Assembly: GCA_049840935.1 (NCBI GenBank)
Contig: JASGJA010000014.1
Location: forward strand, 304 to 64,303
Direction of reading: 5' to 3'
Source of the DNA: Mesorhizobium sp.
GTDB taxonomy: Bacteria; Pseudomonadota; Alphaproteobacteria; Rhizobiales; Rhizobiaceae
Length of the DNA stretch: 64,000 bases
Positions 1,553 to 39,789 of this stretch are shown here, piece by piece. The translations under genes were made by a program, and so were the position numbers. Numbering within the stretch: position 1 is the stretch's first letter; each line of letters starts with the position of its first letter. Under the pieces are notes generated by a model, which saw only the letters and a list, made by a program, of their open reading frames with translations, was not told the origin of the DNA and did no database searches.

Positions 1553-1632
1553 TTCCGTGCTCCTTCTGTTGCTGATGAATGAACCTTGCGAGATACATTG
1601 ACAAACGAATGAATCGAGCATGAGCTGTGAGC

Positions 1633-2562: not shown

Positions 2563-2600
2563 ATGCCTTGCGTCACAAAAATTAGGTGATACCCAGAGGC

Positions 2601-3626: not shown

Positions 3627-3660
3627 TTATCCGGCTAATTTTATTAAATTTGCCGGCAAT

Positions 3661-4548: not shown

Positions 4549-4565
4549 AGTCAGAATTTCCTGTC

Positions 4566-7878: not shown

Positions 7879-7914
7879 TGCTGGCCGCTTACATACTGAC
7901 TCTGGGGAGTCAAG

Positions 7915-7930
7915 TGTTTCACGTGAAACC
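7915..7930. promoter_or_regulatory. parS centromere-like ParB-binding site
   Basis: TGTTTCACGTGAAACC, 15/16 to the parS consensus. Lies in the mnmG-mnmE intergenic region. Confidence 0.85.
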
Positions 7931-7950
7931 AACCGGTTTTTCAGGCGCGG

Positions 7951-7966
7951 TGTTTCACGTGAATCA
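7951..7966. promoter_or_regulatory. parS centromere-like ParB-binding site
   Basis: TGTTTCACGTGAATCA, 15/16 to the parS consensus. Sits 36 bp from the previous site and overlaps the mnmE stop codon. Confidence 0.8.
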
Positions 7967-9262: not shown

Positions 9263-9298
9263 TGCGGCATCAACTTGCGGGCTTTAGGCTGCATCGTC

Positions 9299-11338: not shown

Positions 11339-11351
11339 TTCCAGGCTGAAC

Positions 11352-12617
11352 TTAGGTATTCATCGAATCGAAGAAATCGGCATTCGTCTTCGTCTGCTTG
11401 AGCTTGTCGATAAGGAATTCGATAGCGTCCGTGGTTCCCATCGGCGCGAGAATACGGCGCAGAACAAATATCTTTTGCAAATCCTGCTTGGGCACCAGCA
11501 GATCTTCCTTGCGCGTACCGGACTTGAGAATGTCCATCGCCGGATAGATGCGCTTGTCGGCGACCTTGCGGTCGAGCACAATTTCAGAGTTGCCCGTACC
11601 CTTGAACTCTTCGAAGATGACTTCGTCCATACGGCTACCTGTATCGATCAGCGCCGTCGCGATGATGGTCAGAGATCCACCTTCTTCGATGTTACGCGCC
11701 GCGCCGAAGAAACGTTTCGGCCTTTGCAGAGCATTGGCGTCCACACCGCCGGTCAACACCTTACCCGATGACGGAACAACAGTATTGTAGGCGCGCCCCA
11801 GACGCGTGATGGAATCCAGCAGGATCACCACATCGCGGCCATGCTCGACAAGACGCTTGGCCTTCTCGATCACCATTTCCGCAACCTGAACGTGGCGTGC
11901 GGCAGGTTCGTCGAAAGTCGAGGAAACAACCTCGCCCTTCACCGAGCGCTGCATGTCAGTGACTTCCTCCGGTCGTTCATCTATCAGCAGAACGATGAGA
12001 TAGCATTCCGGATGATTGGTCGTAATTGAGTGAGCAATGTTCTGCAGCAGAACGGTCTTACCCGTGCGCGGCTGCGCCACGATAAGCGCGCGCTGCCCTT
12101 TACCTAGCGGCGCAACCAGATCAATCACGCGTGGTGAAATATCTTTTCCGGTCGGAACAGCCATTTCCATCTTGAGGCGTTCGGTCGGATAGAGCGGCGT
12201 CAGATTGTCGAAATGGATCTTGTGACGGATTTTCTCCGGGTCATCGAAGTTGATCGTATTGACCTTGAGAAGCGCAAAATAGCGTTCGCCTTCTTTGGGA
12301 CTGCGAATTGGACCTTCCACCGTGTCGCCGGTCTTCAGCGAGAACCGGCGGATCTGGGAAGGAGAAATATAAATGTCATCCGGACCGGGCAGATAATTGG
12401 CGTTTGCAGAGCGGAGGAAGCCGAAGCCATCCTGCAACACTTCGACAACGCCATCACCGATGATCTCGATGTCCTGCGCGGCAAGCTTTTTGAGAATCGC
12501 GAACATCAGCTCCTGCTTGCGCATCACGCTGGCGTTCTCAACCTCAAGCGATTCCGCGAAGGCGATCAGATCGGTCGGCTTCTTGTTCTTGAATTCTTGG
12601 AGTTTCATTTCCTGCAT
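11352..12617 (-). CDS. rho: Transcription termination factor Rho
   Basis: Full-length Rho: an N-terminal RNA-binding domain and a RecA-like core with Walker A ([13 protein letters not shown]). Confidence 0.97.
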
Positions 12618-24849: not shown

Positions 24850-25359
24850 TCAGTCCGCGGGCGCATCCAGCGCCATCAACACGGCCTCGCCGTAGATCGT
24901 CGCGATGCGATAAAGCTCGCGAAACCCTGCTTTTTCGTAGGCGCGAATGGCCCGCGCATTGTCCGGATGCGGGTCAATAATGACGCGCGGACAACCTTCT
25001 TCGAAAAGCTGCTCAGCAAACTGGCTGACGATTGCTGAGCCGTGGCCCATGCCGATCAGTTCAGGTTCGCCGATGGAAATATCGAGGCCAAGCGTTCCGA
25101 AGGGCTGATCCTGATAAGGATGGCCTTCTTCAAGATGCGGATCGTAGCATTGCAGATAGGCAATGGGCTTGCCTTTCAACTCCACGATCAATGGCTCGGT
25201 TTCGACCGAATCCATTGCCTCGCGGATTTCCTCGATCGCTTCATCCGCATCGTCCCACCATTCCGCATTATGGGGCTGTGAGAGCCAATCGTGCAGAAGC
25301 GGCAAGTCGTCTGCCTCGACGTCGCGAAAGACGTAGGTCTGCTTTGCGTTATTCGGCAT
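24850..25359 (-). CDS. GNAT-family N-acetyltransferase (aminoglycoside-6'/siderophore-type Acetyltransf_8-like)
   Basis: Starts [26 protein letters not shown]…; contains GMGHGSAIV…[13 protein letters not shown]. The start overlaps the hslV stop by 11 nt. Confidence 0.8.
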
Positions 25360-25897
25360 CGAGCGTCTCGACCACGATGTTGTGGTTCGTATAGACGCAG
25401 ATGTCCGCCGCGATCTGCATCGCCTTGCGCGCAATTGCTTCGGCGTCCGTGTCCGTATCCATCAGCGCGCGTGCTGCGGAGAGCGCATAATTTCCGCCCG
25501 ACCCGATGGCCATAACGCCATGTTCAGGCTCCAGCACATCGCCTGTGCCGGTGAGCGCCAAGGTGACGCTTTTGTCTGCCACCAGCATCATGGCTTCCAG
25601 CCGCCGCAAATAGCGGTCAGTGCGCCAGTCTTTGGCAAGCTCGACGCAGGCGCGCGTTAGCTGATCGGGATATTGTTCAAGCTTGGCTTCAAGGCGCTCA
25701 AGCAGCGTGAAGGCGTCAGCGGTTGCACCGGCAAAACCGGCGATAACATTACCCTTGCCGAGGCGGCGCACCTTGCGGGCGTTGCCCTTCATGATGGTCT
25801 GGCCGAGGCTAACCTGCCCATCGCCAGCGATCACGACCTTATTACCCTTGCGCACGGTCACGATTGTCGTGGCGTGCATACTCTGTTCGTTCGACAT
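25349..25897 (-). CDS. hslV: ATP-dependent protease subunit HslV
   Basis: TTIVTVRKG…GDGQVS…[11 protein letters not shown], an N-terminal Thr protease. Confidence 0.97.
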
Positions 25898-26001
25898 ACG
25901 CTTCTCCGATGGCGCGCGGCCCTGAAAAGCAGCCGCGCGGTACGAGTTGATGCAGCGTTATGTAGGCTGCGGCGGCGCGAATGCAAACCGCCAATCGAGG
26001 A

Positions 26002-26949
26002 TCACCCCAAAGGCTTCAGATTGGCCTCGATTTCCTTGCGGCGAGGCTCCAGAAATGGAGGCAACGCAAGGCTTTCGCCAAGGCTCGCCAGTGGTTCGTC
26101 TACCGCAAAGCCCGGCCCATCGGTGGCGATTTCGAACAGATTGCCGCCCGGTTCACGAAAATAGAGCGAGCGGAAATAATAGCGTTCGACCTCGCCGGAG
26201 TTGGGAATGCGCAGCTCCTTCAGCCGGTTTGCCCATTCATTGATGGCTTTTACGTCGGGCGTGCGGAACGCAACATGATGAACTCCGCCAGCACCCTGTC
26301 GAGCGACTGGGAGGTCTGGCTGAACGGCTACATGAAGCTCCGATGCTGGGCCTTCGCCGCCCATTTTGTAGACGTGCACGACGCCGCTGCCGTCGGGCGA
26401 TGGGTACTCCCGTACCTGTTTCATGCCGAGGACATGGGTAAGCACGAGGTCGGTAGCGTGTTTGTCCGGCACGGAAATGGTCACAGGGCCAAGACCCTTG
26501 ATCTGGTTCAGGGCTGGAACGTCGGTGCCAGACCACGGATGCGTCGGTGCGCCCGCGCCATCGTCAACCAAACGAAAACGCTGACCTTCCGGGTCCTCGA
26601 AGTTCAAGGCGGCACGGCCATCGATCTCCGAAACGTCAGACGTCTTGACGCCTGCCGCCGAGAGCCGATCCCGCCAATAGTTCAACGTCTGCTGTCCTGC
26701 TACGCGCAAACCGGTCAGGCTGATGGAGTGCGTACCGCGCTTTTCGCGACCCACGGGCCAATCGAAGAAAGTGATGTCGGTACCCGGTGTGGCGACCGCA
26801 TCGGCATAAAAGAGATGGTATGCGCTCGTATCGTCCTGATTCACGGTTTTCTTCACAAGGCGCAGGCCCAGTGTTTCTGTATAAAAGCGCTTGTTGCCGG
26901 GTGCATCCGCAGTAATTGCGGTGAGGTGATGGAGGCCTTCGAGTTGCAT
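26002..26949 (-). CDS. VOC-family ring-cleaving dioxygenase / glyoxalase-like protein
   Basis: MQLEGLHHLTAITADAPGNKRFYTETLGLRLVKKTVNQDD… with a duplicated VOC module (…GVHHVAFR…). ATG at 26949 follows AGGAGA. Confidence 0.8.
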   Translation of the reverse strand: MQLEGLHHLTAITADAPGNKRFYTETLGLRLVKKTVNQDDTSAYHLFYADAVATPGTDITFFDWPVGREKRGTHSISLTGLRVAGQQTLNYWRDRLSAAGVKTSDVSEIDGRAALNFEDPEGQRFRLVDDGAGAPTHPWSGTDVPALNQIKGLGPVTISVPDKHATDLVLTHVLGMKQVREYPSPDGSGVVHVYKMGGEGPASELHVAVQPDLPVARQGAGGVHHVAFRTPDVKAINEWANRLKELRIPNSGEVERYYFRSLYFREPGGNLFEIATDGPGFAVDEPLASLGESLALPPFLEPRRKEIEANLKPLG

Positions 26950-27259
26950 GGGGCGTTCTCCTGCTAAATTGCTTTTAACGCATATTGGCCCATCGGACCC
27001 CGAGTAAAAGCGGCCTTTGGGAAACAGTTTGTCGCGCAATAGCGAACGGCACATGAGTTATTTGATTCTCTCCGCCCTCAGAATCTACTGCTAATGGCGT
27101 AGAACTTCGCGATCTATGACGTAGAACAGACTACGCCTTACGCTGTGGGATTATTCGTACTCCTATCCACCAATGAGGCCACGCCCCGTCTGATTTGCCA
27201 TCGTTTGTCTGGCCTGCCTTTGCGTCATTGTGCAGTCTGGCAAAGGTAAGGGGCGGACT

Positions 27260-30200
27260 ATGCAGAAGATTGGCAAGCGCCAACTCATCAACAAACGTGC
27301 GGCCGAAAAAGGCGACAAGGCGGATAAGGTTTTCCGTTATGCCGGGCAGCAGGGCGATGTAACGCAGCAAGACGGTGTTCAAGCCGGCATCTGGACTGTG
27401 GCGCAAACGACAACTTCACAGGCAGAGGCGAAAACCACTGTTGTAACGACGTCGGGTCAACAGGCCGTTCGAACCTTCACGGTAGATGCCGCGACCTTCA
27501 ATACTGTAGAGAGCCCCTCTGCCACGACCGAGAGTTCATCATCCAGTGATTCGGGTGGTTCCTCTACGCTGGATCTCGGCAGTGCCTTCAGCGCATTGTC
27601 CTCAACTGATACGTCAACGGCAGACACTTTTTCGACCTCTGCCAGTGCAACGATTACCGCACGCACCACTTCGGTGAACACCCTTTCATCGACAAGTACT
27701 ACGTCGAGCACCCCCGGCGTGACCGCGCTTGCGGCTACAGGGCCGAACAAGATCGTTCTGGAAAACCAGAAGCAGGGAAATCCCCAAAGCGAATGGGGCA
27801 TCACCGGTGACGGCGACCCAAGCATTCAGGGATTTGCGACCCAGATCAGCACGAATGTCGGCGGAACGGTCGATTTCAAGATCGCCACGGATTCGACAGA
27901 CTACCGTATCGAGATTTATCGTCTCGGCTATTATGGTGGTGATGGCGCACGTAAGGTTGCGACGATCGATAAGAACTTGACCACCGCACAGGTTCAGCCG
28001 CACCCGATCGTCGATTACACAACAGGCTTGATCGATTGCTCTAACTGGTCTGTATCCGCAAGCTGGCAGATCCCCGAAGATGCGACCTCCGGTGTGTATA
28101 TCGCCAAGCTCGTTCGCGAAGACGGTACCGGAGGTGCAAGCCAGATTCCATTTATCGTTCGCGACGACGCTTCAACGAGCGATATCGTTTTCCAAACCTC
28201 GGATACGACTTGGCAGGCTTATAATGCTTGGGGCGGCGCGAGCCTCTATACTGGCGACATTCCTGTTGATCCCAATGATATGATTGGCTGGGTACCGCCA
28301 AACTGCCATTGCTCGCTCTACGCGATCGGTAAGGCGACAGCGGTTAGCTACAATCGCCCGTTCATTACACAGACCAGCCCCGTGGGCGGAACGTGGGATT
28401 ATATTTTTGGGCCTGAGTTTGCTGCAATCCAGTGGCTTGAGCAAAATGGGTATGATGTCTCGTACATCTCTGGCGTCAATTCCACCCGCAATGGCGCTCA
28501 GTTGCTAAATCACGATGCGTTCTTGTCTGTGGGCCACGATGAATATTGGTCGGCTGAACAGCGCGCGAACGTCGAGAACGCGCGCGATTCTGGTGTGAAC
28601 CTTGCGTTCTGGAGCGGCAACGAGGTGTATTGGAAGGTCCGTTGGGAAACGGATGCCTCCGGTAACGCCTATCGTACGATGGTTTGCTATAAGGAAACCT
28701 GGGGGCTTGGAGACGATCCGAGTGGCGTTTCGACCGGTACCTGGCGCGACCCGCGTTATGCCGATCCAGGTCAGGAGCCTGAAAACTCACTTACTGGACA
28801 GTTGTTCACGGTCGATAGCTATCGGTCGGACACGATTACGATCCCTTATGAGATGTCCAATTTCCGGTTCTGGCGCGATACGTCGGTTGCTGATCTTCAG
28901 CCTGGGCAGACATATTCTCTTGTCCAAAATCTGCTGGGCTATGAGTGGGATTCCGATGTTGAGAACGGCTACCGCCCCGCGGGCATGATCAATATGTCCC
29001 TGTCGACCGTTTCGGTCAATTCGTACCTGCGCGATTACGGTACGCAGATTGGGACCAATACCGTTCAGCACAGCCTTACCATGTATCGTGCCGAAAGCGG
29101 TGCGCTGGTGTTCGGTGCGGGCACCGTTTTCTGGAGCTGGGGCCTAAACGACGACCACGCTGGCGTTCCGACGCCGACCGATCCGAATGTGCAGCAGGCA
29201 ATGGTCAATATGTTTGCGGATATGGGCATCCAGCCCATGACGCTTCAAGCCAGCCTTACCCTTGCGACGCAAAGCACTGATTTCATCAAGCCGACCTCCA
29301 CAATTACCTCGCCGATCATTGGCGCAAGCTTTGTTGAGGGACAGAAAGTTACGATTACGGGCACTGCATCCGACACAGGTGGCGGCATAGTTGCGGGCGT
29401 TGAAGTTTCGCTCGACGGCGGCCATAGCTGGTGGAAAGCGACTGGGCGTGAAAACTGGACCTACAACTGGGTTGTGCAGGCCAGTGGCAACTACACGATC
29501 ATGTCGCGTGCCGCGGACGACAGCCTCAATCTCGAAACGCCTTCTGCTGGCAAGACAGTTACAGTAACGCTTCCAACCACATCAAGCCTATGGACACTTG
29601 CGGCAACGCCTCAGCAAGAAACCGTGCTTGACAAGGATAGCGTCGAACTTGGTGTGAAGTTCAAATCAAGCACGAGTGGTGAAGTCACCGGTATTCGTTT
29701 CTTCAAGGGCTTCTACAATATTGGCGAGCACACGGTCAGCCTATGGACCGCTGATGGGCAGTTGCTTGCGCGTGGTGTTTCGACGGGTGAGTCGCTTGAC
29801 GGCTGGCAGCAGGTAACGTTCAGCTCGCCGGTAACTATTGCTGCAAACACCAGCTATATCGCTTCATACCATACCAATGGTTATTATTCGGCGAGCAATG
29901 GGACTTTCACGAGCGGTTATTCCAACGGTCCGCTTTCCGTTGAAGCGAACGGTGCGGTATATGTGTATGGAAATTCACCAACGTTCCCAACCCTTTCACC
30001 GTTCGCTCAGTTTACTGGCGACAATTACTGGGTTGACGTTGTGTTCAAGCCGAACACGACGAATACTGCGCCGGTAGCGAACAACGATAGCGGCTATAGC
30101 ACTACACAAGGCAATGCGCTGACGCTTGCGTTTGCTGCACTTACCGCGAACGACACTGATGCAAATGGCGATGCACTCAGCATTACCGGCGTATCGGATG

Positions 30201-32710
30201 CAGTAAACGGCACCGTTGCAATCAATGCGCAAAATGGCACCGTCGTCTTTACACCGACGGCTGGTTACACCGGCGCTGCGAGCTTCAAGTATACGATCTC
30301 TGACGGGCGCGGCGGTACGTCCACGGCGACAGTCAGCCTTGCAGTGAATGCTGTTCCAACAGGCGTTTCGTTGTTTGCGCCGGGAACCTCGCCAACGGGT
30401 TCGGCTTACAGCGACTCAAGCGTCGAGCTCGGCATGCGCTTCGTGACTTCTGCTTCGGGCACCATCTCCGGCATGAAGTTCTACAAGGCTGCCGGCGAGA
30501 CCGGTACGCATACCGGGTCAATTTGGAAAGCGGATGGCACTCTGCTTGGTACGCTTACCTTTACGAACGAAACTGCGAGCGGCTGGCAAACGGCGGCGTT
30601 CTCAAGCGCGATCAATATCGTCGCGGGCGAACAATATATCGTTTCGTACCATTCAAATGGACGCTATTACGGTACGAGCAATTATTTCACGACCGCAGTG
30701 ACCAACGGTCCGCTGACCGCGCCTGCTTCGGCTGGCGGAGCAGCAAACGGCGTATATGCTTACGGGGGCACAAGCAGCTTCCCGAACCAGACCTATCAGG
30801 CGGCTAATTACTGGGTTGACGTGTTGTTCAATCAGTCAGCGGCAGCGAATACGCCGCCGGTGGCCACGAACGATACCGGCTATACCACCACCTACAACAC
30901 GGCGTTCTCCGTGGGTGCCGCCGCTCTGCTTGCGAACGATACGGATGCGGATGGCGATGTACTTTCCATCACCGGTGTCGATCAGCCGGTAAATGGTACC
31001 GTCTCGTACAACACCACGACGAAGACCGTGACCTTCACGCCAACGACTGGCTATAGCGGTGCCGCAAGCTTCCGCTACACCGTGTCGGATGGAAAGGGCG
31101 GCACAGCGACAGCGACGGTCAGCCTTACAGTCAATACGCCGGTCAACACCGCTCCAACGGCTACCAACGACGGCGGTTATACGACAACCACGAATACGGC
31201 GTTGACGCTTGCGGCGAGTACGCTGCTGGCCAATGACAATGACCCGGATGGGGACGTGCTGTCGATCACCGGTGCCGATCAGGCGGTAAACGGCACTGTT
31301 GCTTATAACACGACGACAAAGGCCGTGACCTTCACGCCGACGACTGGCTACACCGGAGCTGCGAGCTTCCGCTACACCATCTCTGATGGTCGCGGCGGCA
31401 CATCTTCCGCAACGGTGAGCTTCTCCGTTGCAGCACCTGCGCAGACGGTCAGCCTGCTGAATAATGGCACGCCTTCGCAGCCTTCTGTGAACGATCCTTC
31501 CGGGGTTGAGCTTGGAATGCGCTTCACGGTTTCGGCCGCAGGCACCATCACCGGGATCAAGTACTATAAGGGTGTCAACGATACCGGCACACATACCGGT
31601 TCGCTGTGGACGTCCGGCGGAACGCTGCTGACCACGGGCACCTTCACCAACGAGACCACCAGCGGATGGCAGACACTGACTTTCTCGCAGCCGGTTAGCG
31701 TGGCGGCGGGCACTACGTTGGTTGTCAGCTATCACTCGAATGGGAACTATGCAGTCACGCCGAACTACTTCACGTCGACCATTACCAATGGGCCGTTGAG
31801 CGCGACGGGCGGAAACAATGGTGTCTATGCCTATGGCAATAGCAGCCTGTTCCCGACAAACACGTATCAGGCGTCGAACTATTGGGTTGACGTAACGTTC
31901 CAGAACGCAGCCGGAAATGCTGCGCCGGTTGCGAACAACGATACGGGTTTCTCAACCAGCTTCAACACGGCGAAGGTTATACAGGCGAGCCAGTTGCTGG
32001 CGAATGATACCGACTCCAATGGCGATACGCTCAACATTACGGGCGTATCAAATCCGGTAAACGGAACAGTCGCCTATAACAGCACGACGAAGGCGGTGAC
32101 GTTCACTCCGACTGCCGGCTATTCCGGTTCGGCGAGCTTCAGCTATTCGATCTCGGACGGCAATGGCGGAACGTCTTCGGCGAGCGTAAGCCTGACGGTA
32201 AATCCAAACACTGTGGCGCCGACGCAGAGTGTCTTCGCTTCATCTTACACACCGACGATGACTAATGTGGTCGATGGTCCGGTGCAGTTGGGCATGAAGT
32301 TCCAGACCGACGCCGCTGGATGGATCACGGGCTTCAGCTTCTATAAGGGATCGTCGGAGACGGGAACGCACACTGCCAACCTTTGGACGGCATCCGGCAC
32401 CCTGCTGGGCAGCGCGACCTTCACAAACGAGACTGCGAGCGGCTGGCAATATGTTGAGCTTGCACAGCAGGTGGCTGTGACGGCGGACACGACGTACGTC
32501 GTTTCTTACAATGCCAACAGCGCATATTCCGCAACGCCGAACTACTTCTCGACGGATCGCGAGAGCCAGAATCTCACCGCGCTTTCTTCGGCTGTATCCG
32601 GCGGCAATGGTGTGTATACTTACGGCACGGGAGCTTTGTTCCCGACGAGCACGTATAACAGCACCAGCTACAATGTGGACGTAGCATTCCGTCCGCAACT
32701 GGCGGCGTAA
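27260..32710 (+). CDS. Giant (1816 aa) modular, probably extracellular protein: S/T-rich N-terminus, N,N-dimethylformamidase-beta-like domain, Ig-like module, four DUF4082-like and four cadherin-like modules
   Basis: Single uninterrupted ORF; ATG at 27260 follows AAGGGG. DMFase-beta-like motifs: YRLGYYGGDGARK, TWQAYNAWGGASLY, GHDEYWS, FWSGNEVYWKVRWE. Cadherin-like modules follow the pattern APVANNDxGYxT…LLANDTDxDGDxLSITGV…NGTV…VTFTPTxGYxGxASFxYTxSDGxGGT. DUF4082-like modules follow the pattern VELGMRF…TGTHTGSxW…FTNETxSGWQ…VSYHSNG…NGVYAYG…NYWVDVxF. No Sec signal peptide and no GGxGxD RTX repeats were seen. Confidence 0.85.
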   Translation: MQKIGKRQLINKRAAEKGDKADKVFRYAGQQGDVTQQDGVQAGIWTVAQTTTSQAEAKTTVVTTSGQQAVRTFTVDAATFNTVESPSATTESSSSSDSGGSSTLDLGSAFSALSSTDTSTADTFSTSASATITARTTSVNTLSSTSTTSSTPGVTALAATGPNKIVLENQKQGNPQSEWGITGDGDPSIQGFATQISTNVGGTVDFKIATDSTDYRIEIYRLGYYGGDGARKVATIDKNLTTAQVQPHPIVDYTTGLIDCSNWSVSASWQIPEDATSGVYIAKLVREDGTGGASQIPFIVRDDASTSDIVFQTSDTTWQAYNAWGGASLYTGDIPVDPNDMIGWVPPNCHCSLYAIGKATAVSYNRPFITQTSPVGGTWDYIFGPEFAAIQWLEQNGYDVSYISGVNSTRNGAQLLNHDAFLSVGHDEYWSAEQRANVENARDSGVNLAFWSGNEVYWKVRWETDASGNAYRTMVCYKETWGLGDDPSGVSTGTWRDPRYADPGQEPENSLTGQLFTVDSYRSDTITIPYEMSNFRFWRDTSVADLQPGQTYSLVQNLLGYEWDSDVENGYRPAGMINMSLSTVSVNSYLRDYGTQIGTNTVQHSLTMYRAESGALVFGAGTVFWSWGLNDDHAGVPTPTDPNVQQAMVNMFADMGIQPMTLQASLTLATQSTDFIKPTSTITSPIIGASFVEGQKVTITGTASDTGGGIVAGVEVSLDGGHSWWKATGRENWTYNWVVQASGNYTIMSRAADDSLNLETPSAGKTVTVTLPTTSSLWTLAATPQQETVLDKDSVELGVKFKSSTSGEVTGIRFFKGFYNIGEHTVSLWTADGQLLARGVSTGESLDGWQQVTFSSPVTIAANTSYIASYHTNGYYSASNGTFTSGYSNGPLSVEANGAVYVYGNSPTFPTLSPFAQFTGDNYWVDVVFKPNTTNTAPVANNDSGYSTTQGNALTLAFAALTANDTDANGDALSITGVSDAVNGTVAINAQNGTVVFTPTAGYTGAASFKYTISDGRGGTSTATVSLAVNAVPTGVSLFAPGTSPTGSAYSDSSVELGMRFVTSASGTISGMKFYKAAGETGTHTGSIWKADGTLLGTLTFTNETASGWQTAAFSSAINIVAGEQYIVSYHSNGRYYGTSNYFTTAVTNGPLTAPASAGGAANGVYAYGGTSSFPNQTYQAANYWVDVLFNQSAAANTPPVATNDTGYTTTYNTAFSVGAAALLANDTDADGDVLSITGVDQPVNGTVSYNTTTKTVTFTPTTGYSGAASFRYTVSDGKGGTATATVSLTVNTPVNTAPTATNDGGYTTTTNTALTLAASTLLANDNDPDGDVLSITGADQAVNGTVAYNTTTKAVTFTPTTGYTGAASFRYTISDGRGGTSSATVSFSVAAPAQTVSLLNNGTPSQPSVNDPSGVELGMRFTVSAAGTITGIKYYKGVNDTGTHTGSLWTSGGTLLTTGTFTNETTSGWQTLTFSQPVSVAAGTTLVVSYHSNGNYAVTPNYFTSTITNGPLSATGGNNGVYAYGNSSLFPTNTYQASNYWVDVTFQNAAGNAAPVANNDTGFSTSFNTAKVIQASQLLANDTDSNGDTLNITGVSNPVNGTVAYNSTTKAVTFTPTAGYSGSASFSYSISDGNGGTSSASVSLTVNPNTVAPTQSVFASSYTPTMTNVVDGPVQLGMKFQTDAAGWITGFSFYKGSSETGTHTANLWTASGTLLGSATFTNETASGWQYVELAQQVAVTADTTYVVSYNANSAYSATPNYFSTDRESQNLTALSSAVSGGNGVYTYGTGALFPTSTYNSTSYNVDVAFRPQLAA
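29584..32707 (+). repeat. Intragenic modular repeats (coding)
   Basis: DUF4082-like units lie at about 29584-30054, 30350-30835, 31434-31903 and 32204-32707. Cadherin-like units lie at about 30058-30349, 30848-31135, 31139-31433 and 31913-32203. Units are diverged at the DNA level but share long conserved peptide strings. Confidence 0.8.
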
Positions 32711-32722
32711 GCGGAGTAAACA

Positions 32723-33946
32723 ATGGAAGACCATCGGGCGGATGGGTTGCTTCCAGTGACGGTATTGGCCGGCTTCCTCGGAGCCGGCAAGACGACACTG
32801 CTCAACCATGTTTTGCGCAATGCGGACGAGCGCCGCATTGCGGTAATCGTCAACGACATGAGCGAAGTTAACATCGACGCGGATCTCATTCGTGATGCCG
32901 ATGTAACCCGTACAGACGAGACGATGGTTGAGCTTTCCAACGGCTGCATTTGCTGCACGCTGCGGGAAGACCTCCTCGTCGAAGTTCGCCGGTTGGCTGA
33001 GGCGGGGAAATTCGATTACATCCTGATCGAAGGTACAGGCATAGCCGAGCCGCTGCCGATCGCGGCATCTTTCTCTTTCAAGGATGAAGAGGGCCGCTCG
33101 CTGCGCGATGTGTCGCGGTTGGACACAATGGTGTCCGTTGTCGATGCGGTAAATCTTTTGAAAGACTTCAGCAGCCAGGATTTGTTGAGTGATCGTGGAG
33201 AGGTTCGCGACAATGACGACGAGCGTAGCCTGATCGACCTTCTGGTGGATCAGATCGAGTTCGCGGATGTCGTCGTTGTCAACAAGGCGAGCGAAGTAAG
33301 TGTCGATGAACTGGCCGAGATACGCCGTATCGTTAAATCGCTAAATATCGACGCAAAGCTGATCGAAACCGACTTCGGCAAGGTCGATCTGGGTGAGATC
33401 ATGGATACCGGCCTGTTCAGCGAAGCGAAGGCTGCGGCGCATCCGCTATGGCACAAAGAGCTTTACAGTCCCGCCGAGCACATTCCGGAAACGGAAGAAT
33501 ACGGCATATCGAGTTTTGTCTATCGAGCTAGACGCCCCTTCGATCCCGAAAAATTTTATGCATTTACGCAACGCAAGTGGGACGGACTACTGCGCGCCAA
33601 GGGGCATTTCTGGCTGGCGACCCGCAAGGACTGGATAGGTCTCTATTCGGTGGCGGGTACACAGACAAAAGTAGATCAGAGGGGCTATTGGTGGGTCGCC
33701 GTTCCACGAACGTACTGGCCGCGCCAGCCGCAATTTCAGGCTATGTTGCAACGTTATTGGACGGCGACATGGGGCGACCGCCGGCAGGAACTGGTTTTCA
33801 TCGGTGTTAACCTACCGAAGGAAGAAATTTCAGCCGCGCTTGACGCATGTCTCTCCGGAAGCGAAACGGGAATTGACGCAAGGGAAGCGGCCGGGATGCG
33901 CGACCCCTTCCCAGAATGGGTTCGGCATAATCACGCCGCAGCCTAG
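32723..33946 (+). CDS. CobW/G3E-family metallochaperone GTPase (ZigA/YeiR-like)
   Basis: P-loop GFLGAGKTTLLNH, metal-binding CxCC motif (GCICCTLRED) and a CobW C-terminal domain. Starts 12 nt after the giant ORF stop, preceded by GGAG. Confidence 0.9.
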   Translation: MEDHRADGLLPVTVLAGFLGAGKTTLLNHVLRNADERRIAVIVNDMSEVNIDADLIRDADVTRTDETMVELSNGCICCTLREDLLVEVRRLAEAGKFDYILIEGTGIAEPLPIAASFSFKDEEGRSLRDVSRLDTMVSVVDAVNLLKDFSSQDLLSDRGEVRDNDDERSLIDLLVDQIEFADVVVVNKASEVSVDELAEIRRIVKSLNIDAKLIETDFGKVDLGEIMDTGLFSEAKAAAHPLWHKELYSPAEHIPETEEYGISSFVYRARRPFDPEKFYAFTQRKWDGLLRAKGHFWLATRKDWIGLYSVAGTQTKVDQRGYWWVAVPRTYWPRQPQFQAMLQRYWTATWGDRRQELVFIGVNLPKEEISAALDACLSGSETGIDAREAAGMRDPFPEWVRHNHAAA

Positions 33947-33969
33947 AGAGCAACAATGCGGAGAGTGAG

Positions 33970-34299
33970 ATGGCGGACGAACTCTATTCTGATGGAATTG
34001 GCGAAATCACGGTAACTGGAACGATCGTGCGGATCGATCTCGTGAGCCTTTCGCCTACCGAGCGTGATTTAAAAGGCAACCCAAAGCCGGTTTTCAGACA
34101 GCGCATCATTATGCCGATCGACGCTTTTGCGAATTCGGTCGACGTTATGGACAAGGCGCTGGCCGGTCTGGTGGATGCGGGTGCGGTGCGCCGTGCGCCA
34201 GAGGTAACGCCGCTTCCGGGTGCTGCGACGGCTCCTGTCGAGCAGCCGCGCACCAAGAAGGCGACGCCGCCGGAAAACAGCTCTCCGAATTTTAACTGA
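33970..34299 (+). CDS. Hypothetical 109-aa protein (no family recognised)
   Basis: ORF with a GGAGAG Shine-Dalgarno sequence. Beta-rich N-terminal half (GEITVTGTIVRIDLVSLSP) and a Pro/Ala-rich tail. Sits between the cobW-like gene and the T1SS ABC gene. Confidence 0.55.
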   Translation: MADELYSDGIGEITVTGTIVRIDLVSLSPTERDLKGNPKPVFRQRIIMPIDAFANSVDVMDKALAGLVDAGAVRRAPEVTPLPGAATAPVEQPRTKKATPPENSSPNFN

Positions 34300-34329
34300 T
34301 CGCGCGGAACCAGGGGGGCCTGACGTCCG

Positions 34330-36477
34330 ATGTCGATGGAGCAGCACACAAACATTCAGTGCCTTGCCCTGGTGGCGAGGCATCTTGGCGTAGATGTTTC
34401 AGCCGACCGGCTGGCGCATGATTATTCGGTCGGCGAGCAGCCGATTTCGACGCAGAAGCTTCTGCGTATGGCGAAGGACAAGGGCATGCGTGCCCGCGCC
34501 GTTCGCATGAAATTCGATGCGTTCGGCAAGTTGCGGGAAGCGTTTCCCGTTCTTGCTGAGCTTTCCAACGGAAATTGGGTGGTCGTCGCGAATGTCGTGA
34601 CCATGCCTGATGGCGAGCAGCGCGTCGGGGTTATCGACCCGCTCGCGGCGCGGCCCGAAGCATTGATGCTCAGCCGCGATCAGTTCGAGAAAAGCTGGAG
34701 CGGCAACGTCGTTTTGCTTAAGCGCGTTTTCAAATTGCGCGACAGTGAGCAGCCATTCGGTATTCGCTGGTTCATTCCGGAAATCATCAAGCAGCGCAGC
34801 CTGTTTCGTGACGTCGCGATTGCCGCCCTCGTGCTTTATGCATTGGGCCTCGTCACGCCGATCTTCTTCCAACTCGTGATCGACAAGGTTCTGGCGCACC
34901 AGAGCTATGCCACGCTGACGGTTTTGAGCATTGGCATCGTCATTGCGCTGATGTTTGAGGCGACTTTTACCTTCTTGCGGCGATATTTGTTGCTCTATGC
35001 GACTAACAAGATCGACGTGCGCGTGTCCACGCGAACATTCTCTCATTTGCTGAACCTGCCGATTGCGCTGTTCGAGCACGCCCCTGCGGGCTTGTTGATC
35101 AAGCACATGCAACAGGCCGGGCGCATTCGTGAGTTTTTGACCGGGCGACTGTTCCTCGGATTGCTCGATGCCATGTCACTCATCGTGTTCGTGCCGGTTT
35201 TGCTGCTCTACAGCGTCAAGCTAACCATGGTGGTGCTTGGGTTTACAGCGCTGGTTGGCCTGACGGTATTCATGCTGATCGGTCCTTTCCAGCGCAGGCT
35301 TCAAAAGCTCTATCAAGCTGAAGGCGAACGGCAGGCTTTGCTGGTCGAAACTGTGCATGGCATGCGCGCGGTCAAGTCGCTTGCGCTTGAACCGCGCCAG
35401 CGCCGCGTCTGGGATGACCAGTCGGCGGAAGTGATTTCCGAGCGCTATCACGTCGAAAAAATCTCGGCACTTGCGCAATCGCTGACCGGCTTGCTGGAAA
35501 AGCTGATGGGCGTCGCCATCATCGTGATCGGTGCGCTGGATGCGTTTTCCGGTGCGATGACGGTGGGTACGCTGGTTGCGTTCAACATGCTGGCGAACCG
35601 CGTTTCCGGTCCGCTGGTGCAGATCGTGACCATGGTGCACGAGTATCAGGAAGTTTCGCTCTCCGTTCGGATGCTGGGAGAGGTTATGAACCAGCGCCCG
35701 GAACGTTTTGGTATGGGCAGCGGCCTGCGTCCCGAAATCAAGGGCGAGATTGAGTTCAGCGGCGTTTCGTTCCATTACGGGCCGGATCGTGCGCCTGCAC
35801 TTGATGAGGTTTCCTTCAAGATCGAGCCGGGCACTGTGTTCGGTCTGGTTGGCAAAAGCGGCTCAGGTAAGACGACAATCACCCGCATGATACAGGGCCT
35901 GTATCCTGTTCAACAGGGACTGTTGAAGATCGATGGCGCCGACTGCCGCGAGATCGATCTGGTGCATCTGCGCAAGAGCATTGGCGTTGTGTTGCAGGAC
36001 AGCTTCCTGTTCAAGGGAACTGTGCGCGACAACATATCCATCGCGAAGCCCGACGCTACTATGGATGAAATTGCAGCTGCTGCGCGACTGGCGGGCGCTG
36101 AAGAGTTTATCGAGCGCTTGCCACGCGGTCTGGAAACGGACCTCGAAGAAAACGCATCCAACCTGTCTGGTGGGCAGAAGCAGCGGCTGGCTATCGCGCG
36201 CGCTTTGATCACCGATCCGAAGCTGCTGATTTTCGATGAAGCGACAAGCGCGCTTGATCCCGACAGCGAGGCAATCATCCGGCAGAATCTGCGCCGGATT
36301 GCCGAAGGCCGTACAGTCATTATCGTTTCCCACCGCCTGTCCACGCTCACCGATGCCGACGCCATTCTCGTGATGGAACGCGGCAAGGTGTCTGATGTCG
36401 GTCGTCATGAAGAGCTTGTGTCTCGTTGCATGACCTATCGCCATCTGTGGAACCAGCAGATGAAGCAGGTGGCATGA
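34330..36477 (+). CDS. Type I secretion system ABC transporter (permease/ATPase) with N-terminal C39-like domain
   Basis: About 130-aa N-terminal C39-like domain, a six-TM exporter domain, Walker A GKSGSGKTT, signature LSGGQKQR and Walker B LLIFDEATSALD. This is the HlyB/CvaB architecture. Confidence 0.9.
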   Translation: MSMEQHTNIQCLALVARHLGVDVSADRLAHDYSVGEQPISTQKLLRMAKDKGMRARAVRMKFDAFGKLREAFPVLAELSNGNWVVVANVVTMPDGEQRVGVIDPLAARPEALMLSRDQFEKSWSGNVVLLKRVFKLRDSEQPFGIRWFIPEIIKQRSLFRDVAIAALVLYALGLVTPIFFQLVIDKVLAHQSYATLTVLSIGIVIALMFEATFTFLRRYLLLYATNKIDVRVSTRTFSHLLNLPIALFEHAPAGLLIKHMQQAGRIREFLTGRLFLGLLDAMSLIVFVPVLLLYSVKLTMVVLGFTALVGLTVFMLIGPFQRRLQKLYQAEGERQALLVETVHGMRAVKSLALEPRQRRVWDDQSAEVISERYHVEKISALAQSLTGLLEKLMGVAIIVIGALDAFSGAMTVGTLVAFNMLANRVSGPLVQIVTMVHEYQEVSLSVRMLGEVMNQRPERFGMGSGLRPEIKGEIEFSGVSFHYGPDRAPALDEVSFKIEPGTVFGLVGKSGSGKTTITRMIQGLYPVQQGLLKIDGADCREIDLVHLRKSIGVVLQDSFLFKGTVRDNISIAKPDATMDEIAAAARLAGAEEFIERLPRGLETDLEENASNLSGGQKQRLAIARALITDPKLLIFDEATSALDPDSEAIIRQNLRRIAEGRTVIIVSHRLSTLTDADAILVMERGKVSDVGRHEELVSRCMTYRHLWNQQMKQVA

Positions 36478-37937
36478 TGGATATGACCCAACACAAGGAA
36501 GCTTTGCCGGAAGGCGTTGAAGCTGACGCCAGCCCGGTCGAGCAAAAGCCGACGGTGGTTGTGCAACCTTTGCCTGCGGCACCGAAAGCGGGCAAAAAAG
36601 TCATCTCGGAATTTCAGCCGGATGCAATCGAGCTTGAGGAACGGGTGCCGCCGCGGGTTGCGCGGATCACGCTTTACACGATAACTGCGCTAATCATTGC
36701 AGGGGTTACGTGGGCCTCCCTTGCTTCGATTGATGAGGTTGTCGTGGCTCGCGGTAAGCTGGTCACGACCAAGCCGACAATCGTGGTGCAGCCAATTGAA
36801 ACATCCATCGTGCGCAGCATCGATGTGCAGCCGGGCGATGTCGTGAAGGCGGGCCAGACGCTTGCGACGCTGGACGCAACTTTCAGTCAGGCTGATGTTG
36901 ATCGTCGCCGCACGGAATACGCCGCGCTGGACGCACAGGTGAAGCGCATGGAGGCCGAACTTCAGGGCCGCGACTATGCCGCCGAGGCAGGCAGCACACC
37001 GGACGAGATGTTGCAGGTGCAGGTCTTTATGCAGCGCAAGGCGTTCCACGATGCGCAGATGCAGAATTTCGATCAGCAGATTGCGGGGCAGCAGGCGGCA
37101 ATTGAATCCAGCACCGACCAGCAGACCATTCTGGCCGAGCGCCAGCAGACGCTGACGCAGATCGAGCTTGCGCGCGAAAAACTGGCCAAGCAGGAAACCG
37201 GTTCGTTGATGAATATGCTGACCTCGCGTGACGCACGTCTCGCGGTGGATGCGAGCTATGCGCAGGCAGTCGGCACGCAGGCGACGGCAACCCACGCCGT
37301 GGCCAAGTTGCAGGCAGACAAGCAGGCTTTCATTGAGGACTTTCGTCGGGTGACAATGGAAACGCTGGCCGACAAACGTAGCCAGCGGGACTCAACCGGC
37401 GAAGAGTTAAAGAAGATGGAGTTGCGCCGCGATATGGTGAAGCTGACCGCGCCGTCCGATGCGGTCGTGCTTGATCTTGCGCAGCGGTCCATCGGCTCAG
37501 TTGTGCGTGAAGCTGAACCTGTTCTGACGTTGGTGCCGCTGAATGTGCCGCTTGAAGCGGAAGTAACTGTCAATGCCAGTGACATAGGCCGAGTGGCTTC
37601 TCATGCGGAAGCGCGGATCAAGTTTGACGCCTTTCCGTTCCAGAAATTCGGGACGGCCGAAGGGTCCGTTCGCACAATCAGTCACGATGCCTATTCTCAC
37701 GATAGCTCTTCCAACAGCGCCGCAGCAGGCGGTGGCGACGGTGAAAACGCAGGGGCACCATATTACAAGGCGCGCATCAGGCTCGATAAAACCGACCTGA
37801 GAACGCCTATCGAAGATGTGCGGCTGCTACCGGGTATGGCAGTGACGGCGGAATTGAAGGTGGGCCAGCGGAAGGTAATTTCCTACTTCCTCTATCCGAT
37901 CCTGAAGGGACTGGATACGGCGATCCGGGAACCCTAA
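36474..37937 (+). CDS. HlyD-family type I secretion periplasmic adaptor (membrane fusion protein)
   Basis: Start ATG overlaps the ABC stop (ATGA). N-terminal TM segment (ITLYTITALIIAGVTWASLA), a long Q/A-rich coiled coil and a C-terminal beta-barrel (…LLPGMAVTAELKVGQRKVISYFLYPI). Confidence 0.9.
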   Translation: MMDMTQHKEALPEGVEADASPVEQKPTVVVQPLPAAPKAGKKVISEFQPDAIELEERVPPRVARITLYTITALIIAGVTWASLASIDEVVVARGKLVTTKPTIVVQPIETSIVRSIDVQPGDVVKAGQTLATLDATFSQADVDRRRTEYAALDAQVKRMEAELQGRDYAAEAGSTPDEMLQVQVFMQRKAFHDAQMQNFDQQIAGQQAAIESSTDQQTILAERQQTLTQIELAREKLAKQETGSLMNMLTSRDARLAVDASYAQAVGTQATATHAVAKLQADKQAFIEDFRRVTMETLADKRSQRDSTGEELKKMELRRDMVKLTAPSDAVVLDLAQRSIGSVVREAEPVLTLVPLNVPLEAEVTVNASDIGRVASHAEARIKFDAFPFQKFGTAEGSVRTISHDAYSHDSSSNSAAAGGGDGENAGAPYYKARIRLDKTDLRTPIEDVRLLPGMAVTAELKVGQRKVISYFLYPILKGLDTAIREP

Positions 37938-38040
37938 TCGAACGGCCTACATCTTTCGGTTAGCGGCGGCGGCCATTTTGGCTTCTGTACAGAATTGACC
38001 CGCCGCGCTTTTCTCATAGAAAATTTTGGAGCGCGTAGCA

Positions 38041-38753
38041 TGCAGTCCGGTAACAAGCCTGTTCGTGTGGTGAAAGCCGTGCACGGTGCGGCGGTTCAAG
38101 CCGAAGACCCGGCCTATGAAGTTGGATTGTCAGAGGCGTTGAAGGCGGATTACAGCCGCGACGGTCTGGTCGAGCTTTACGGTCGATTTGCGCAGGGCGA
38201 CGGCAAGCTCGATACGCTGATGCGCCGGGCAATTGTGCGTGCGCTTTCGGTGCGTTGCGGACATGGGCTCAAGATTGGCGCGGGTGCGTGGTTCAAGCAT
38301 GCCGAGACGTTCACGATCGGTAACGGCCTGTTCGTAGGTGCTGGCGCGCAGATACAGGGCCGGTTTGACGGCAGCTTCGTGATTGGCGACAATTGCTGGA
38401 TCGGACCGCAGGCATTCCTCGATGCGCGCGATCTGGTGTTCGGCGACTATGTGGGCTGGGGGCCGGGCGCGAAAATTCTGGGCTCCGCACATAGCGCCAT
38501 GCCGGTCGATGTGCCGATCATCAAAACGGATCTGGAAATTCGGCCCGTGCGCATTGGCGACTGGGCAGATATCGGGACCAACGCGACCATTCTGCCGGGG
38601 GTAACGGTGGGCAAGGGCGCGATCATCGGCGCGGGCGCTGTCGTCGTGGAAGACGTGCCGGATTTTGCGATTGTTGCCGGTGTGCCAGCGCGGGTGCTTC
38701 GCATTCGCTCCAATGATGATGATGTCGAAGGTCGTTCGATTCGTCACGCCTGA
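38041..38753 (+). CDS. Left-handed beta-helix (hexapeptide-repeat) acyl/acetyltransferase
   Basis: Repeated [LIV]-G-x4 hexapeptides (IGDNCWIGPQAFL…VGWGPGAKILG…IGDWADIGTNATILPGVTVGKGAIIGAGAVV). ATG at 38041 follows TGGAG. Confidence 0.8.
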
Positions 38754-38814
38754 CACGCTTCCATACTGCGCTGAAACGGTCTAGAAGCCCGCTTGGACAA
38801 GCGAGGACCATGCA

Positions 38815-39414
38815 ATGGCTGGACGCAGCGCCGAAGTGAGCCGCACGACCAAGGAAACGGACATCGCCGTTTCCCTGCATGTCGATGGAACGGGCAAGGC
38901 TGACATCTCCACAGGGGTCGGTTTTTTCGATCATATGCTGGACCAGCTTTCGCGCCATTCGCTGATCGATATGACGATCAAGGCGAAGGGCGATCTGCAC
39001 ATTGACGATCACCACACCGTTGAGGACACCGGCATTGCGATAGGGCAGGCGCTCTCCAAGGCATTGGGCGAGCGGCGCGGCATTATGCGCTACGCTTCGC
39101 TGGACCTTGCCATGGACGAAACGCTGACGCGCGCGGCGGTGGATGTGTCGGGCAGGCCGTTTCTGGTCTGGGACGTGAATTTCTCTGCGCCGAAGATTGG
39201 GACGTTCGACACCGAACTGGTGCGCGAGTTCTTTAACGCGCTGGCGCAACATGCGGGCATTACCCTGCATGTGAAAAATCACTATGGCGCGAACAATCAC
39301 CACATCGCGGAAACCTGCTTCAAGGCGGTGGCGCGCGTGTTGCGTGCAGCGCTGGAAAGCGACCCGCGCCAGCCTAACGCGGTGCCCTCGACCAAGGGCA
39401 GCCTGAAAGGCTGA
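38815..39414 (+). CDS. hisB: Imidazoleglycerol-phosphate dehydratase
   Basis: RTTKETDI…[12 protein letters not shown]…[12 protein letters not shown]…NNHHIAE motifs. Confidence 0.95.
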
Positions 39415-39417
39415 ACG

Positions 39418-39789
39418 ATGGCAAGTTTCGTGATTATGGAGCCGCCTGCGGGCAGCAAAGCCGACACCGTTTTGGTGAAGGATGGCTTTGCCCTTTTCGG
39501 TTTTCTCGTGCCACCGCTATGGCTGGCATGGCATCGGCTGTGGCTGGAGGCGATTACGGTCGGCCTGCTGCTGGTCCTGCTCGACTGGCTCGCGCGTGGC
39601 GGCGGCTATGGTGTGTTCGCAGCGATGCTGTCGTTCGCGCTTTGCGCGCTGGTGGGGCTGGAAGGCGCGCGATTGCGGGTCGCGTCGCTGGAGCGGAAAG
39701 GCTGGCATCAGGCTGCCTATATAGACGCAAGGAACAGCGAAGAGGCCGAAGCGCGTTTTGCCTTTGCTCGATTTGGAGTGGCTGCGTGA
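39418..39789 (+). CDS. DUF2628-like small membrane protein
   Basis: 123 aa with two or three hydrophobic segments. Wedged between hisB and hisH, and its stop overlaps the hisH ATG. Confidence 0.6.

Follow-up and report, generated by a model that had tools for sequence, protein, structure and literature searches.

Type I secretion systems (T1SSs) are usually taught as three parts, an ATP-binding cassette (ABC) transporter, an adaptor and TolC, to which the cargo is added. Here we analyse a T1SS locus in a 64-kb stretch of DNA from Mesorhizobium sp. (assembly GCA_049840935.1, contig JASGJA010000014.1; hereafter the window), where genes for a giant modular protein, a CobW-type GTPase, a small protein, an ABC transporter and an HlyD-family adaptor follow one another. 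The closest described relative is that of Rhizobium leguminosarum (now R. johnstonii) 3841, whose ABC/HlyD pair was named bltDE (pRL90164/65) by Krehenbrink and Downie in 2008 (PMC2275737). Upstream of bltDE, pRL90159 and pRL90161 encode proteins of 179 and 184 kDa that lack RTX repeats and contain a repeated 140-residue motif; from sequence only, they were proposed as bacteriocin-like BltDE substrates, and the exporter was classed as bacteriocin/lantibiotic-type (PMC2275737). In Rhizobium, the PrsDE T1SS exports other cargo without RTX repeats, namely the cadherin-like lectin Rap and the glycanases PlyA and PlyB, which act on the cell's own exopolysaccharide (PMC9298526, PMC5061743).

Our literature search found the bltDE genes mentioned, beyond PMC2275737, only in a 2024 review that repeats the bacteriocin-exporter suggestion, and it found no discussion of the CobW gene or the small gene. 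On pRL9 of R. johnstonii 3841, the annotations read "DUF4082 domain-containing protein", "GTP-binding protein", "hypothetical protein", "peptidase domain-containing ABC transporter" and "HlyD family" adaptor. An earlier note on the window had held that no characterised system has this composition. This stands as far as function goes, but the gene set itself had already been described in 2008; the locus is described but uncharacterised.

By comparing the locus with its relatives, we arrive at a reading of the cassette as two coupled modules, one for export (33970-37937) and one for cargo (27260-33946). Together with the mechanism proposed below, we give this reading a little better than an even chance. 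What the comparison appears to add to the 2008 description is the two-module structure, the small protein as the hallmark third gene of the exporter, an inactive C39-like domain, a PQLAA tail on the cargo, an active site of the dimethylformamidase (DMFase) type, and the pairing of the giant with a CobW protein of zinc-chaperone ancestry.

A conserved cassette of five genes

Listing and translating the open reading frames (ORFs) of the window gave six co-directional plus-strand ORFs at 27260-38753, between hslV with its VOC neighbour and hisB. Domains were called by Pfam and NCBIfam profile searches, and the earlier account of the six genes, their spacing, domains and flanks was correct, nearly to the base. 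So was its view of an accessory gene set amid an otherwise housekeeping region, and the set proved to be conserved in other genomes.

Scanning one genome per species for the small gene yielded 80 loci, at which the window proteins were then compared by tblastn. ABC and HlyD genes lay downstream of the small gene at all 80, CobW lay upstream of it at 79, and a giant with the Pfam domain DMFA2_C lay upstream of CobW at 72; the adjacency is not a matter of chance. The acetyltransferase gene and the hslV/hisB flanks were present at only two loci (L009 and L020, which belong to the window's own clade). Because the acetyltransferase is missing from 78 of the 80 loci, is separated from the HlyD gene by a 102-nt gap and has a promoter-like site of its own at 37995-38024, we place it outside the cassette. 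The six-gene operon that the earlier note had proposed is therefore not upheld; by this comparison the cassette comprises five genes, and the acetyltransferase is a neighbour rather than a member.

The order giant-CobW-small-ABC-HlyD recurs in Aquamicrobium, Sinorhizobium garamanticum and Paradevosia shaoguanensis, each time amid unrelated genes and with no acetyltransferase gene beside it; the five window proteins are 58-76% identical to their counterparts in these three genera. The small protein of the window is identical over its full length (100%) to one in a Mesorhizobium sp. metagenome-assembled genome, and the nearest isolate in the species-representative scan is Mesorhizobium denitrificans LA-28. 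Many bacteria of soil and roots share the cassette, but its distribution is patchy. Carriers include R. leguminosarum 3841, R. etli CIAT 652 and R. phaseoli, and in Rhizobium and Sinorhizobium it is usually borne on a plasmid or chromid. In contrast, the window cassette has a core chromosomal setting, since mnmG (gidA), mnmE (trmE) and rho, along with a DUF255 thioredoxin-like gene, lie at 6001-12617, 15-20 kb upstream. Polysaccharide genes flank the cassette or its remnants at several rhizobial loci.

In seven or eight species (loci L014, L023, L027, L029, L038, L065 and L070) the giant is not beside CobW-small-ABC-HlyD. Unrelated genes take its place there, several of them for polysaccharide (a WecG-type transferase, a UDP-glucose dehydrogenase, a GT4 enzyme). 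L070 lacks CobW as well, and R. giardinii has a DMFA2_C protein elsewhere in its genome (P0136). Masked sequence was ruled out as the cause at the seven giant-less loci, which contain no runs of N and hold real, unrelated genes.

An HlyB-type exporter with an inactive C39-like domain

The ABC protein contains Pfam Peptidase_C39 (the C39-like domain), ABC_membrane and ABC_tran. It matches the HlyB-type model TIGR01846 over its full length at 674 bits, just below the trusted cut-off of 725.55, against 351 bits for the bacteriocin-type model; the HlyD protein scores 311 bits with TIGR01843 (cut-off 209). When aligned to the HlyB structure, the position of the catalytic Cys of C39 peptidases is taken by Thr7, opposite Tyr9 of HlyB, and alignment to the ComA structure places a Val at the position of the catalytic His. 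The Thr was kept in eight of eight relatives checked, distant ones included. Because Cys has given way to Thr and His to Val, the C39-like domain is, by these alignments, non-proteolytic, as it is in RTX exporters, and the ABC protein is not a leader-cleaving bacteriocin pump; on its active-site residues, that assignment was rejected. No double-glycine (GG/GA) leader was found at the N-terminus of either the giant or the small protein. Judged by these comparisons, the 2008 label "bacteriocin exporter" is probably wrong.

A small protein that belongs to the exporter

The earlier note had called the small gene an orphan and had taken the T1SS apparatus to be simply two-component. Neither description holds. 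A word-indexed search returned 884 homologues of the small protein and an exhaustive profile search at least 510 clusters at 50% identity, and at every locus examined the small gene lies directly upstream of the ABC gene, even where giant and CobW are lacking. On plasmid p6 of Azospirillum lipoferum it stands 3 nt upstream of ABC/HlyD in a polysaccharide/lipopolysaccharide region that has neither giant nor CobW. On a Methylovirgula plasmid, likewise without CobW, it stands between ABC/HlyD and the gene for a 3459-residue DUF4082/cadherin giant that has no DMFA2_C domain. A distant homologue on a metagenome contig extends over the start codon of the ABC gene and has, as its divergent neighbour, the gene for a serralysin-like protease with RTX repeats. 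Serralysin-like RTX proteases are textbook T1SS substrates. The small protein, as this linkage indicates, belongs with the exporter and not with the giant, and is the invariable third gene of this T1SS subtype.

The plasmid of Methylovirgula sp. 4M-Z18 (L091, 263-11991) has two further genes preceding the giant, one for an RTX-toxin-activating lysine acyltransferase and one for an unknown protein of 230 residues. The acyltransferase gene suggests that some cargo of this T1SS subtype is acylated.

In its AlphaFold2 model, the small protein has three strands and a helix (residues 9-69, predicted local distance difference test (pLDDT) 84-92) followed by a disordered tail. The alignment agrees: a highly conserved N-domain, 62-69% identical across families and so as conserved as the transporter parts, is followed by a linker variable in length and sequence and by an invariant C-terminal N-x-SPNFN. 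Across the family (P0241-P0390), the extreme C-terminus reads SPNF(x) or [KR]xPFP, and the variable linker before it has about 20-60 residues; this layout recalls the tails of SSB or SspB. The protein is acidic and has no Cys and no signal peptide. It matched no Pfam or NCBIfam family and no PDB sequence even at E<=10; Foldseek gave nothing significant, the best matches (E 0.29) being PUR-alpha/PC4-like nucleic-acid-binding folds that we take as noise. Because a folded domain, a flexible linker and a conserved terminal peptide make up the layout of a tethering adaptor, we infer by analogy that the small protein would act in the cytoplasm as an adaptor or chaperone and would dock on the transporter through its tail.

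The giant protein as probable cargo

Profile searches of the giant matched DMFA2_C (E 5e-100), Big_7, four copies of DUF4082 (E 2e-180) and four cadherin-like/Big_9/tandem-95 modules. Orthologues in Aquamicrobium, Sinorhizobium and Paradevosia are 58-71% identical to it. Each of the four cadherin-like modules contains an NDxDxxGD motif of the calcium type, and one of them matches the RTX protein structure 36gk. The array contains diverged internal DNA repeats (D1-D3); Tandem Repeats Finder reported nothing in the giant gene, its modules being too diverged. The N-terminal region varies between genera, usually measuring 160-340 residues and reaching about 1080. The largest versions, of 830-1080 residues, occur in some Mesorhizobium-like genomes (giant genes of L011, L026 and L088), and in the metagenome relative L008 (7170-14498) the region is replaced by DUF4347 and RTX repeats on a contig that appears frameshifted into four ORFs.

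A scan of the giant sequence agreed with the earlier note that it has neither a Sec signal peptide nor canonical RTX repeats. There is no hydrophobic N-terminal signal, and the only four Cys residues are all in the catalytic head. Homologous catalytic domains in cyanobacteria and other phyla, about 55% identical, have clear Sec signal peptides and in one case a twin-arginine signal; we conclude that the enzyme would work outside the cytoplasm. RTX repeats are present in two relatives that share this head (P0121, P0178).

The C-terminus of the giant points to its route. Among 113 giant C-termini recovered, 108 end in LAA, LVA, LVG, LAG or LAS, nearly all as F[RK]PQL(A/V)(A/G), and these include both Rhizobium paralogues as well as the Methylovirgula giant that has no DMFA2_C domain. 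The other five tails differ, and come from giants (Sec-type or leaderless) that do not adjoin a T1SS. No ORF of the 64-kb window other than the giant has a PQLAA-type ending. The tail thus tracks the exporter, as would be expected of a secretion signal, and we regard it as a candidate for one. Given the tail, the missing leader, the RTX-bearing relatives and the linkage, it is very probable that the adjacent T1SS exports the giant, in agreement with the earlier note.

The predicted enzyme head and its likely substrate

We modelled residues 161-787 of the giant with AlphaFold2 (pLDDT 82, predicted template modelling (pTM) score 0.86). The top Foldseek matches of the head were the N-acetyl-(R)-beta-phenylalanine acylase (8i5a/8huy) and DMFase (6lvb), with E values of 4e-16 to 1e-14 and TM scores of about 0.45-0.51; there were no other matches over the catalytic part. 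DMFase binds Fe(III) through Y399, Y440 and E521, and its H519 is essential (PMC7686228). When a profile hidden Markov model of the conserved core was aligned with 6lvb, Y330, H426 and E428 of the giant fell on Y440, H519 and E521, respectively, and all three are invariant in 26 diverse family members. An invariant Y321, in a QAYN motif, is a candidate for the third metal ligand. From these alignments and the model, we predict the head to be an active metallo-amidohydrolase.

The DMFA2_C/Big_7/DUF4082 enzyme family spans several phyla, with more than 6000 members, and is often encoded at polysaccharide loci; in Chroococcidiopsis and Methylopila, members lie within glycosyltransferase clusters. 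Because of these clusters, the polysaccharide genes that flank the cassette and the precedent of Rap and Ply in Rhizobium, an extracellular polysaccharide would be the likely target of the head.

Pairing of the CobW GTPase with the giant

The CobW protein has a P-loop (GFLGAGKT, at residue 17), a CxCC metal motif (CICC, at residue 75) and the Pfam domains cobW and CobW_C. Its best NCBIfam match is ZigA, with a score of 560.2 bits that falls short of the equivalog cut-off of 600, and it is 52% identical to proteins annotated as ZigA (PGAP/NCBI); RefSeq labels its orthologues only 'GTP-binding protein'. The nearest relatives outside the cassette are 58-59% identical and lie beside aztABCD zinc-uptake genes and a gene for a Fur-family regulator.

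On pRL9 the gene order is giant-CobW-giant-CobW-small-ABC-HlyD. A second upstream CobW, preceded by a second giant with a PQLAA ending, was found at 28 of the 80 loci, nearly all of them in Rhizobium. The tandem occurs in the R. leguminosarum/etli/phaseoli group (L089, which is pRL9, 1-10927; upstream parts in L036-L087), where the upstream giants end in VVFRPQLAA and the downstream ones in VAF[RK]PQLAA. The three T1SS loci that have no DMFA2_C cargo (Azospirillum p6, Methylovirgula and the metagenome contig) also have no CobW. The converse arrangement is found on plasmid pLA6_003 of Paracoccaceae bacterium La 6 (L099, 5962-11354), where a 55%-identical CobW gene overlaps the start of a DMFA2_C gene inside an exopolysaccharide operon (Wzz-like protein, glycosyltransferases, gmd, fcl). 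That DMFA2_C protein is leaderless, has 1379 residues arranged as DMFA2_C/cadherin/3xDUF4082 and ends in DPYDTLL, not PQLAA, and no T1SS lies within 6 kb of the pair. By this comparison, CobW is paired with the giant and not with the T1SS. CobW as a T1SS component was rejected because of the Paracoccaceae operon and of the three T1SS loci where CobW and DMFA2_C are both missing.

A quick neighbour-joining tree of 10 sequences puts the six sampled cassette CobWs in a clade of their own. The Paracoccaceae CobW groups with a Rhodobacterales zinc-locus paralogue, a weak hint of separate recruitment. A zinc-type GTPase of the G3E family has thus been captured by the DMFA2_C enzyme, and may either load its metal or withhold metal so that the head stays competent for export.

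Proposed mechanism and alternative explanations

We propose that the small protein would dock onto the ABC transporter through its C-terminal tail, acting as adaptor or chaperone, and that the giant would be recognised through its F[RK]PQLAA tail and exported unfolded, C-terminus first. Outside the cell it would fold on calcium through its cadherin-like modules and present a DMFase-like mononuclear-metal amidohydrolase head on a stalk of DUF4082 and cadherin modules resembling glycan-binding ones. The most likely target would be the cell's own exopolysaccharide or capsule, for instance by removal of N-acyl groups. CobW would act in the cytoplasm on the metal site of the head, supplying metal or keeping it out until export. 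A bolder version, which we put forward only tentatively, is that the locus represents an unrecognised class of T1SS with an obligatory cytoplasmic small protein that docks by its SPNF/PFP terminus, cargo addressed by an invariant [RK]PQLAA C-terminus and, where the cargo has a DMFase-like head, a dedicated ZigA-derived GTPase that controls metalation, and with it folding, of that head before export. If true, the last of these features would be the first link of a G3E metallochaperone with a protein secretion pathway.

Several observations weigh against the two-module reading. At 7 of the 80 loci, CobW-small-ABC-HlyD is retained without an adjacent giant. T1SS cargo crosses unfolded, which makes a cytoplasmic metallochaperone for a secreted domain paradoxical, and no CobW gene lies near two leaderless members of the DMFA2_C family. 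Of the DMFase metal ligands, Y399 could not be mapped, since the alignment does not reach it. Neither by sequence nor by structure does the small protein have a relative of known function, so that the role given to it here is purely our inference, and it could itself be secreted. No GGxGxD (RTX) motif occurs in the giant, and a check of 10 window ORFs of 357-687 residues, all outside the cluster, revealed no TolC-like gene. A TolC-like factor is usually encoded elsewhere, so the lack of a local gene is not disqualifying. Finally, for R. leguminosarum 3841, PMC2275737 reports (data not shown) that mutation of bltD left the protein profile of the supernatant as it was; this is compatible with a lack of expression under laboratory conditions or with a product that stays on the cell, and is not support for secretion.

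The explanation already in the literature is that the giants are bacteriocin-like toxins against competing rhizobia, exported by a BltDE-type bacteriocin exporter (PMC2275737). The C39-family domain of the ABC protein agrees with it, as do the large T1SS-exported proteins among rhizobial medium bacteriocins, the patchy and often plasmid-borne distribution of the cassette and the toxin-activating acyltransferase at the Methylovirgula locus. We nonetheless consider it very unlikely, since with catalytic Cys and His lost in every member checked no leader would be cleaved, neither a double-glycine leader nor an immunity gene is evident, and the head is about 55% identical to Sec-exported proteins in cyanobacterial polysaccharide clusters. 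Another view starts from CobW and makes the cassette a zinc-limitation module: Zur would control an ordinary ZigA-type chaperone, zinc starvation would switch the cassette on, and the giant would be an extracellular metal scavenger or a zinc enzyme in need of help at low zinc. The ZigA match and the paralogues beside aztABCD and the Fur-family regulator speak for it. It is decidedly unlikely all the same: no Zur-box-like site was found in the window (enterobacterial consensus, up to 3 mismatches), the motif that other genera share 5' of their giant genes is no AT-rich palindrome, and CobW has been duplicated along with the giant, not along with zinc genes, and falls into the cassette clade described above.

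A further alternative makes the small protein, by itself or in company with the giant, the product that is exported, with its SPNF C-terminus as the secretion signal. This seems to us unlikely, for all that an acidic protein free of Cys and signal peptide, with a disordered C-terminal region and an invariant extreme C-terminus, always encoded beside the ABC gene, is what one might look for in such a product. Its N-domain is as conserved as the transporter parts, its SPNFx/[KR]PFP motifs after very variable linkers fit tethering adaptors better than known T1SS signals, and the loci have obvious large cargo genes. One functional operon of all six genes would explain their shared orientation and the same arrangement in the two closest genomes (L009 and L020), and the sugar-acetyltransferase-like matches of the last gene would suit the polysaccharide theme; this idea is already largely refuted by the absence of that gene beside the cassette elsewhere, the 102-nt gap and the promoter-like site speak against it as well, and it is hardly credible. 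We therefore keep to the two-module reading. For T1SS researchers, the unannotated fourth gene linked to ABC/HlyD is a concrete candidate adaptor or chaperone, and the giant-CobW pairing poses the question of what role a cytoplasmic zinc-type GTPase has for a protein that crosses two membranes unfolded. The presence of the cassette in model rhizobia makes genetics easy, and a secreted polysaccharide-modifying amidase would matter for the biology of biofilms and root attachment.

Layout and regulation of the locus

The features of the locus are collected in Table 1. From the giant gene onwards, successive genes are separated by 12, 23 and 30 nt, an ATGA overlap and 102 nt. The longest ORF of the giant gene begins with GTG at 27230; the start at 27260 is supported because a GGGGCGG ribosome-binding stretch before the ATG is common to all loci compared.

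Table 1. Features of the secretion locus and its neighbour, with positions in the 64-kb window.
Feature	Position	Strand	Remarks
Upstream region of cassette	27055..27259	+	Ribosome-binding stretch GGGGCGG-N4-ATG; weak copy of upstream motif
Giant protein	27260..32710	+	ATG start; 1816 aa; 190 kDa; pI 4.4; no signal peptide; no RTX motif
Ser/Thr-rich, non-conserved N-terminal region of giant, aa 1-166	27260..27757	+	Alignment of four orthologues; composition
DMFase-large-subunit-like catalytic domain (predicted), aa 167-631	27758..29152	+	Pfam DMFA2_C; AlphaFold2; Foldseek
Big_7 Ig-like domain, aa 678-747	29291..29500	+	Follows catalytic domain throughout the family
Four DUF4082 beta-sandwich modules alternating with four cadherin-like/tandem-95 modules	29597..32689	+	Pfam; NCBIfam
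C-terminal tail RPQLAA	32690..32707	+	Candidate secretion signal; comparison of C-termini
ZigA-clade COG0523 (CobW) GTPase	32723..33946	+	407 aa
Small T1SS-associated protein	33970..34299	+	109 aa; no Pfam family
HlyB-type T1SS ABC transporter	34330..36477	+	715 aa
HlyD-family membrane-fusion protein	36474..37937	+	487 aa; ATGA overlap with ABC stop codon
Hexapeptide-repeat acetyltransferase	38040..38753	+	237 aa; neighbour, outside cassette

On the hslV side, the flank consists of DUF1402, hslU, GNAT, hslV and VOC/glyoxalase genes, and on the hisB side of hisB, DUF2628, hisH, hisA and hisF. The GNAT gene (24850-25434, minus strand) lies between hslU and hslV, and the longest GNAT and hslV ORFs overlap. 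The acetyltransferase matches Pfam Hexapep, and its NCBIfam matches are generic, sub-threshold and sugar-acetyltransferase-like. A 299-residue antisense ORF at 30836-31735 (minus strand) lies within the repeat region of the giant gene, and the cluster has several more ORFs, of 90-240 residues, on either strand; all of these seem to be by-products of coding sequence rich in G+C. No convincing direct or inverted repeats that would mark an insertion were found at the flanks, and GC content gave no clear island signal (0.54-0.60 in the cluster, 0.53-0.61 around it).

Exact k-mer counts over the regions 5' of the giant gene in 20 loci gave a motif, ACCGATTGGTGTCGTTC, with AGCTGGCAAGAT about 20 nt downstream of it, in many genera with differing surroundings (L003, L012, L021, L024, L035, L040 and others), about 100-130 nt before the start codon. 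The window holds only a weak copy, GATTTGCCATCGTTTGTC, at about 27192-27209. The motif is neither Zur-box-like nor an AT-rich palindrome. It could be a promoter or a regulator site. No match to the Zur box AATGTTATNNTATAACATT, a consensus of the enterobacterial type only, was found with up to 3 mismatches anywhere in the window. Rfam at E<=1 over 25800-39500 returned nothing, and inside the cassette no intrinsic terminator was found beyond chance expectation.

Comparison with known systems

The haemolysin system HlyB/HlyD/TolC shares with the cassette an inactive C39-like domain followed by transmembrane and nucleotide-binding domains, an HlyD gene overlapping the ABC gene, and a cargo gene directly upstream, with an acidic, leaderless product whose signal is probably at the C-terminus. 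It differs in that the cassette cargo has no RTX nonapeptides, the window locus has no acyltransferase gene and no TolC gene nearby, and a small gene and CobW are added. The LapA-type adhesins (LapBCE) are likewise giant repeat proteins with Ig/cadherin-like modules, served by an ABC protein with a C39-like domain. Unlike them, the giant has no RTX repeats and begins with a non-conserved low-complexity region followed by an enzyme domain instead of a retention module, and there are no LapG/LapD genes at the locus.

For the enzyme head, the best counterparts are the DMFase large subunit (6lvb) and N-acetyl-(R)-beta-phenylalanine acylase (8huy/8i5a), which have the same fold and the equivalents of Tyr440, His519 and Glu521. 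They are only 12-16% identical to the head and cytoplasmic, and DMFase has a small subunit, whereas the head sits on a 190-kDa modular protein. CobW has the P-loop, CxCC and CobW_C of ZigA/COG0523 and relatives in zinc-uptake loci, but it scores below the cut-off, no Zur box was found, and its genetic link is with one exported client, not with genes of zinc homeostasis.

The bltDE locus is orthologous, with the same gene order from pRL90159 to pRL90165 and identities of 63-78% to the window proteins; it is plasmid-borne and has two giant-CobW pairs, and the 2008 paper does not mention the CobW and small genes. PrsDE with Rap and Ply differs from the cassette in its PrtD/AprD-type ABC protein without a C39-like domain, its scattered and much smaller cargo, and its lack of CobW and of the small gene. 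It is nevertheless the best functional analogy, for there too a T1SS handles non-RTX cargo with cadherin-like calcium-binding domains.

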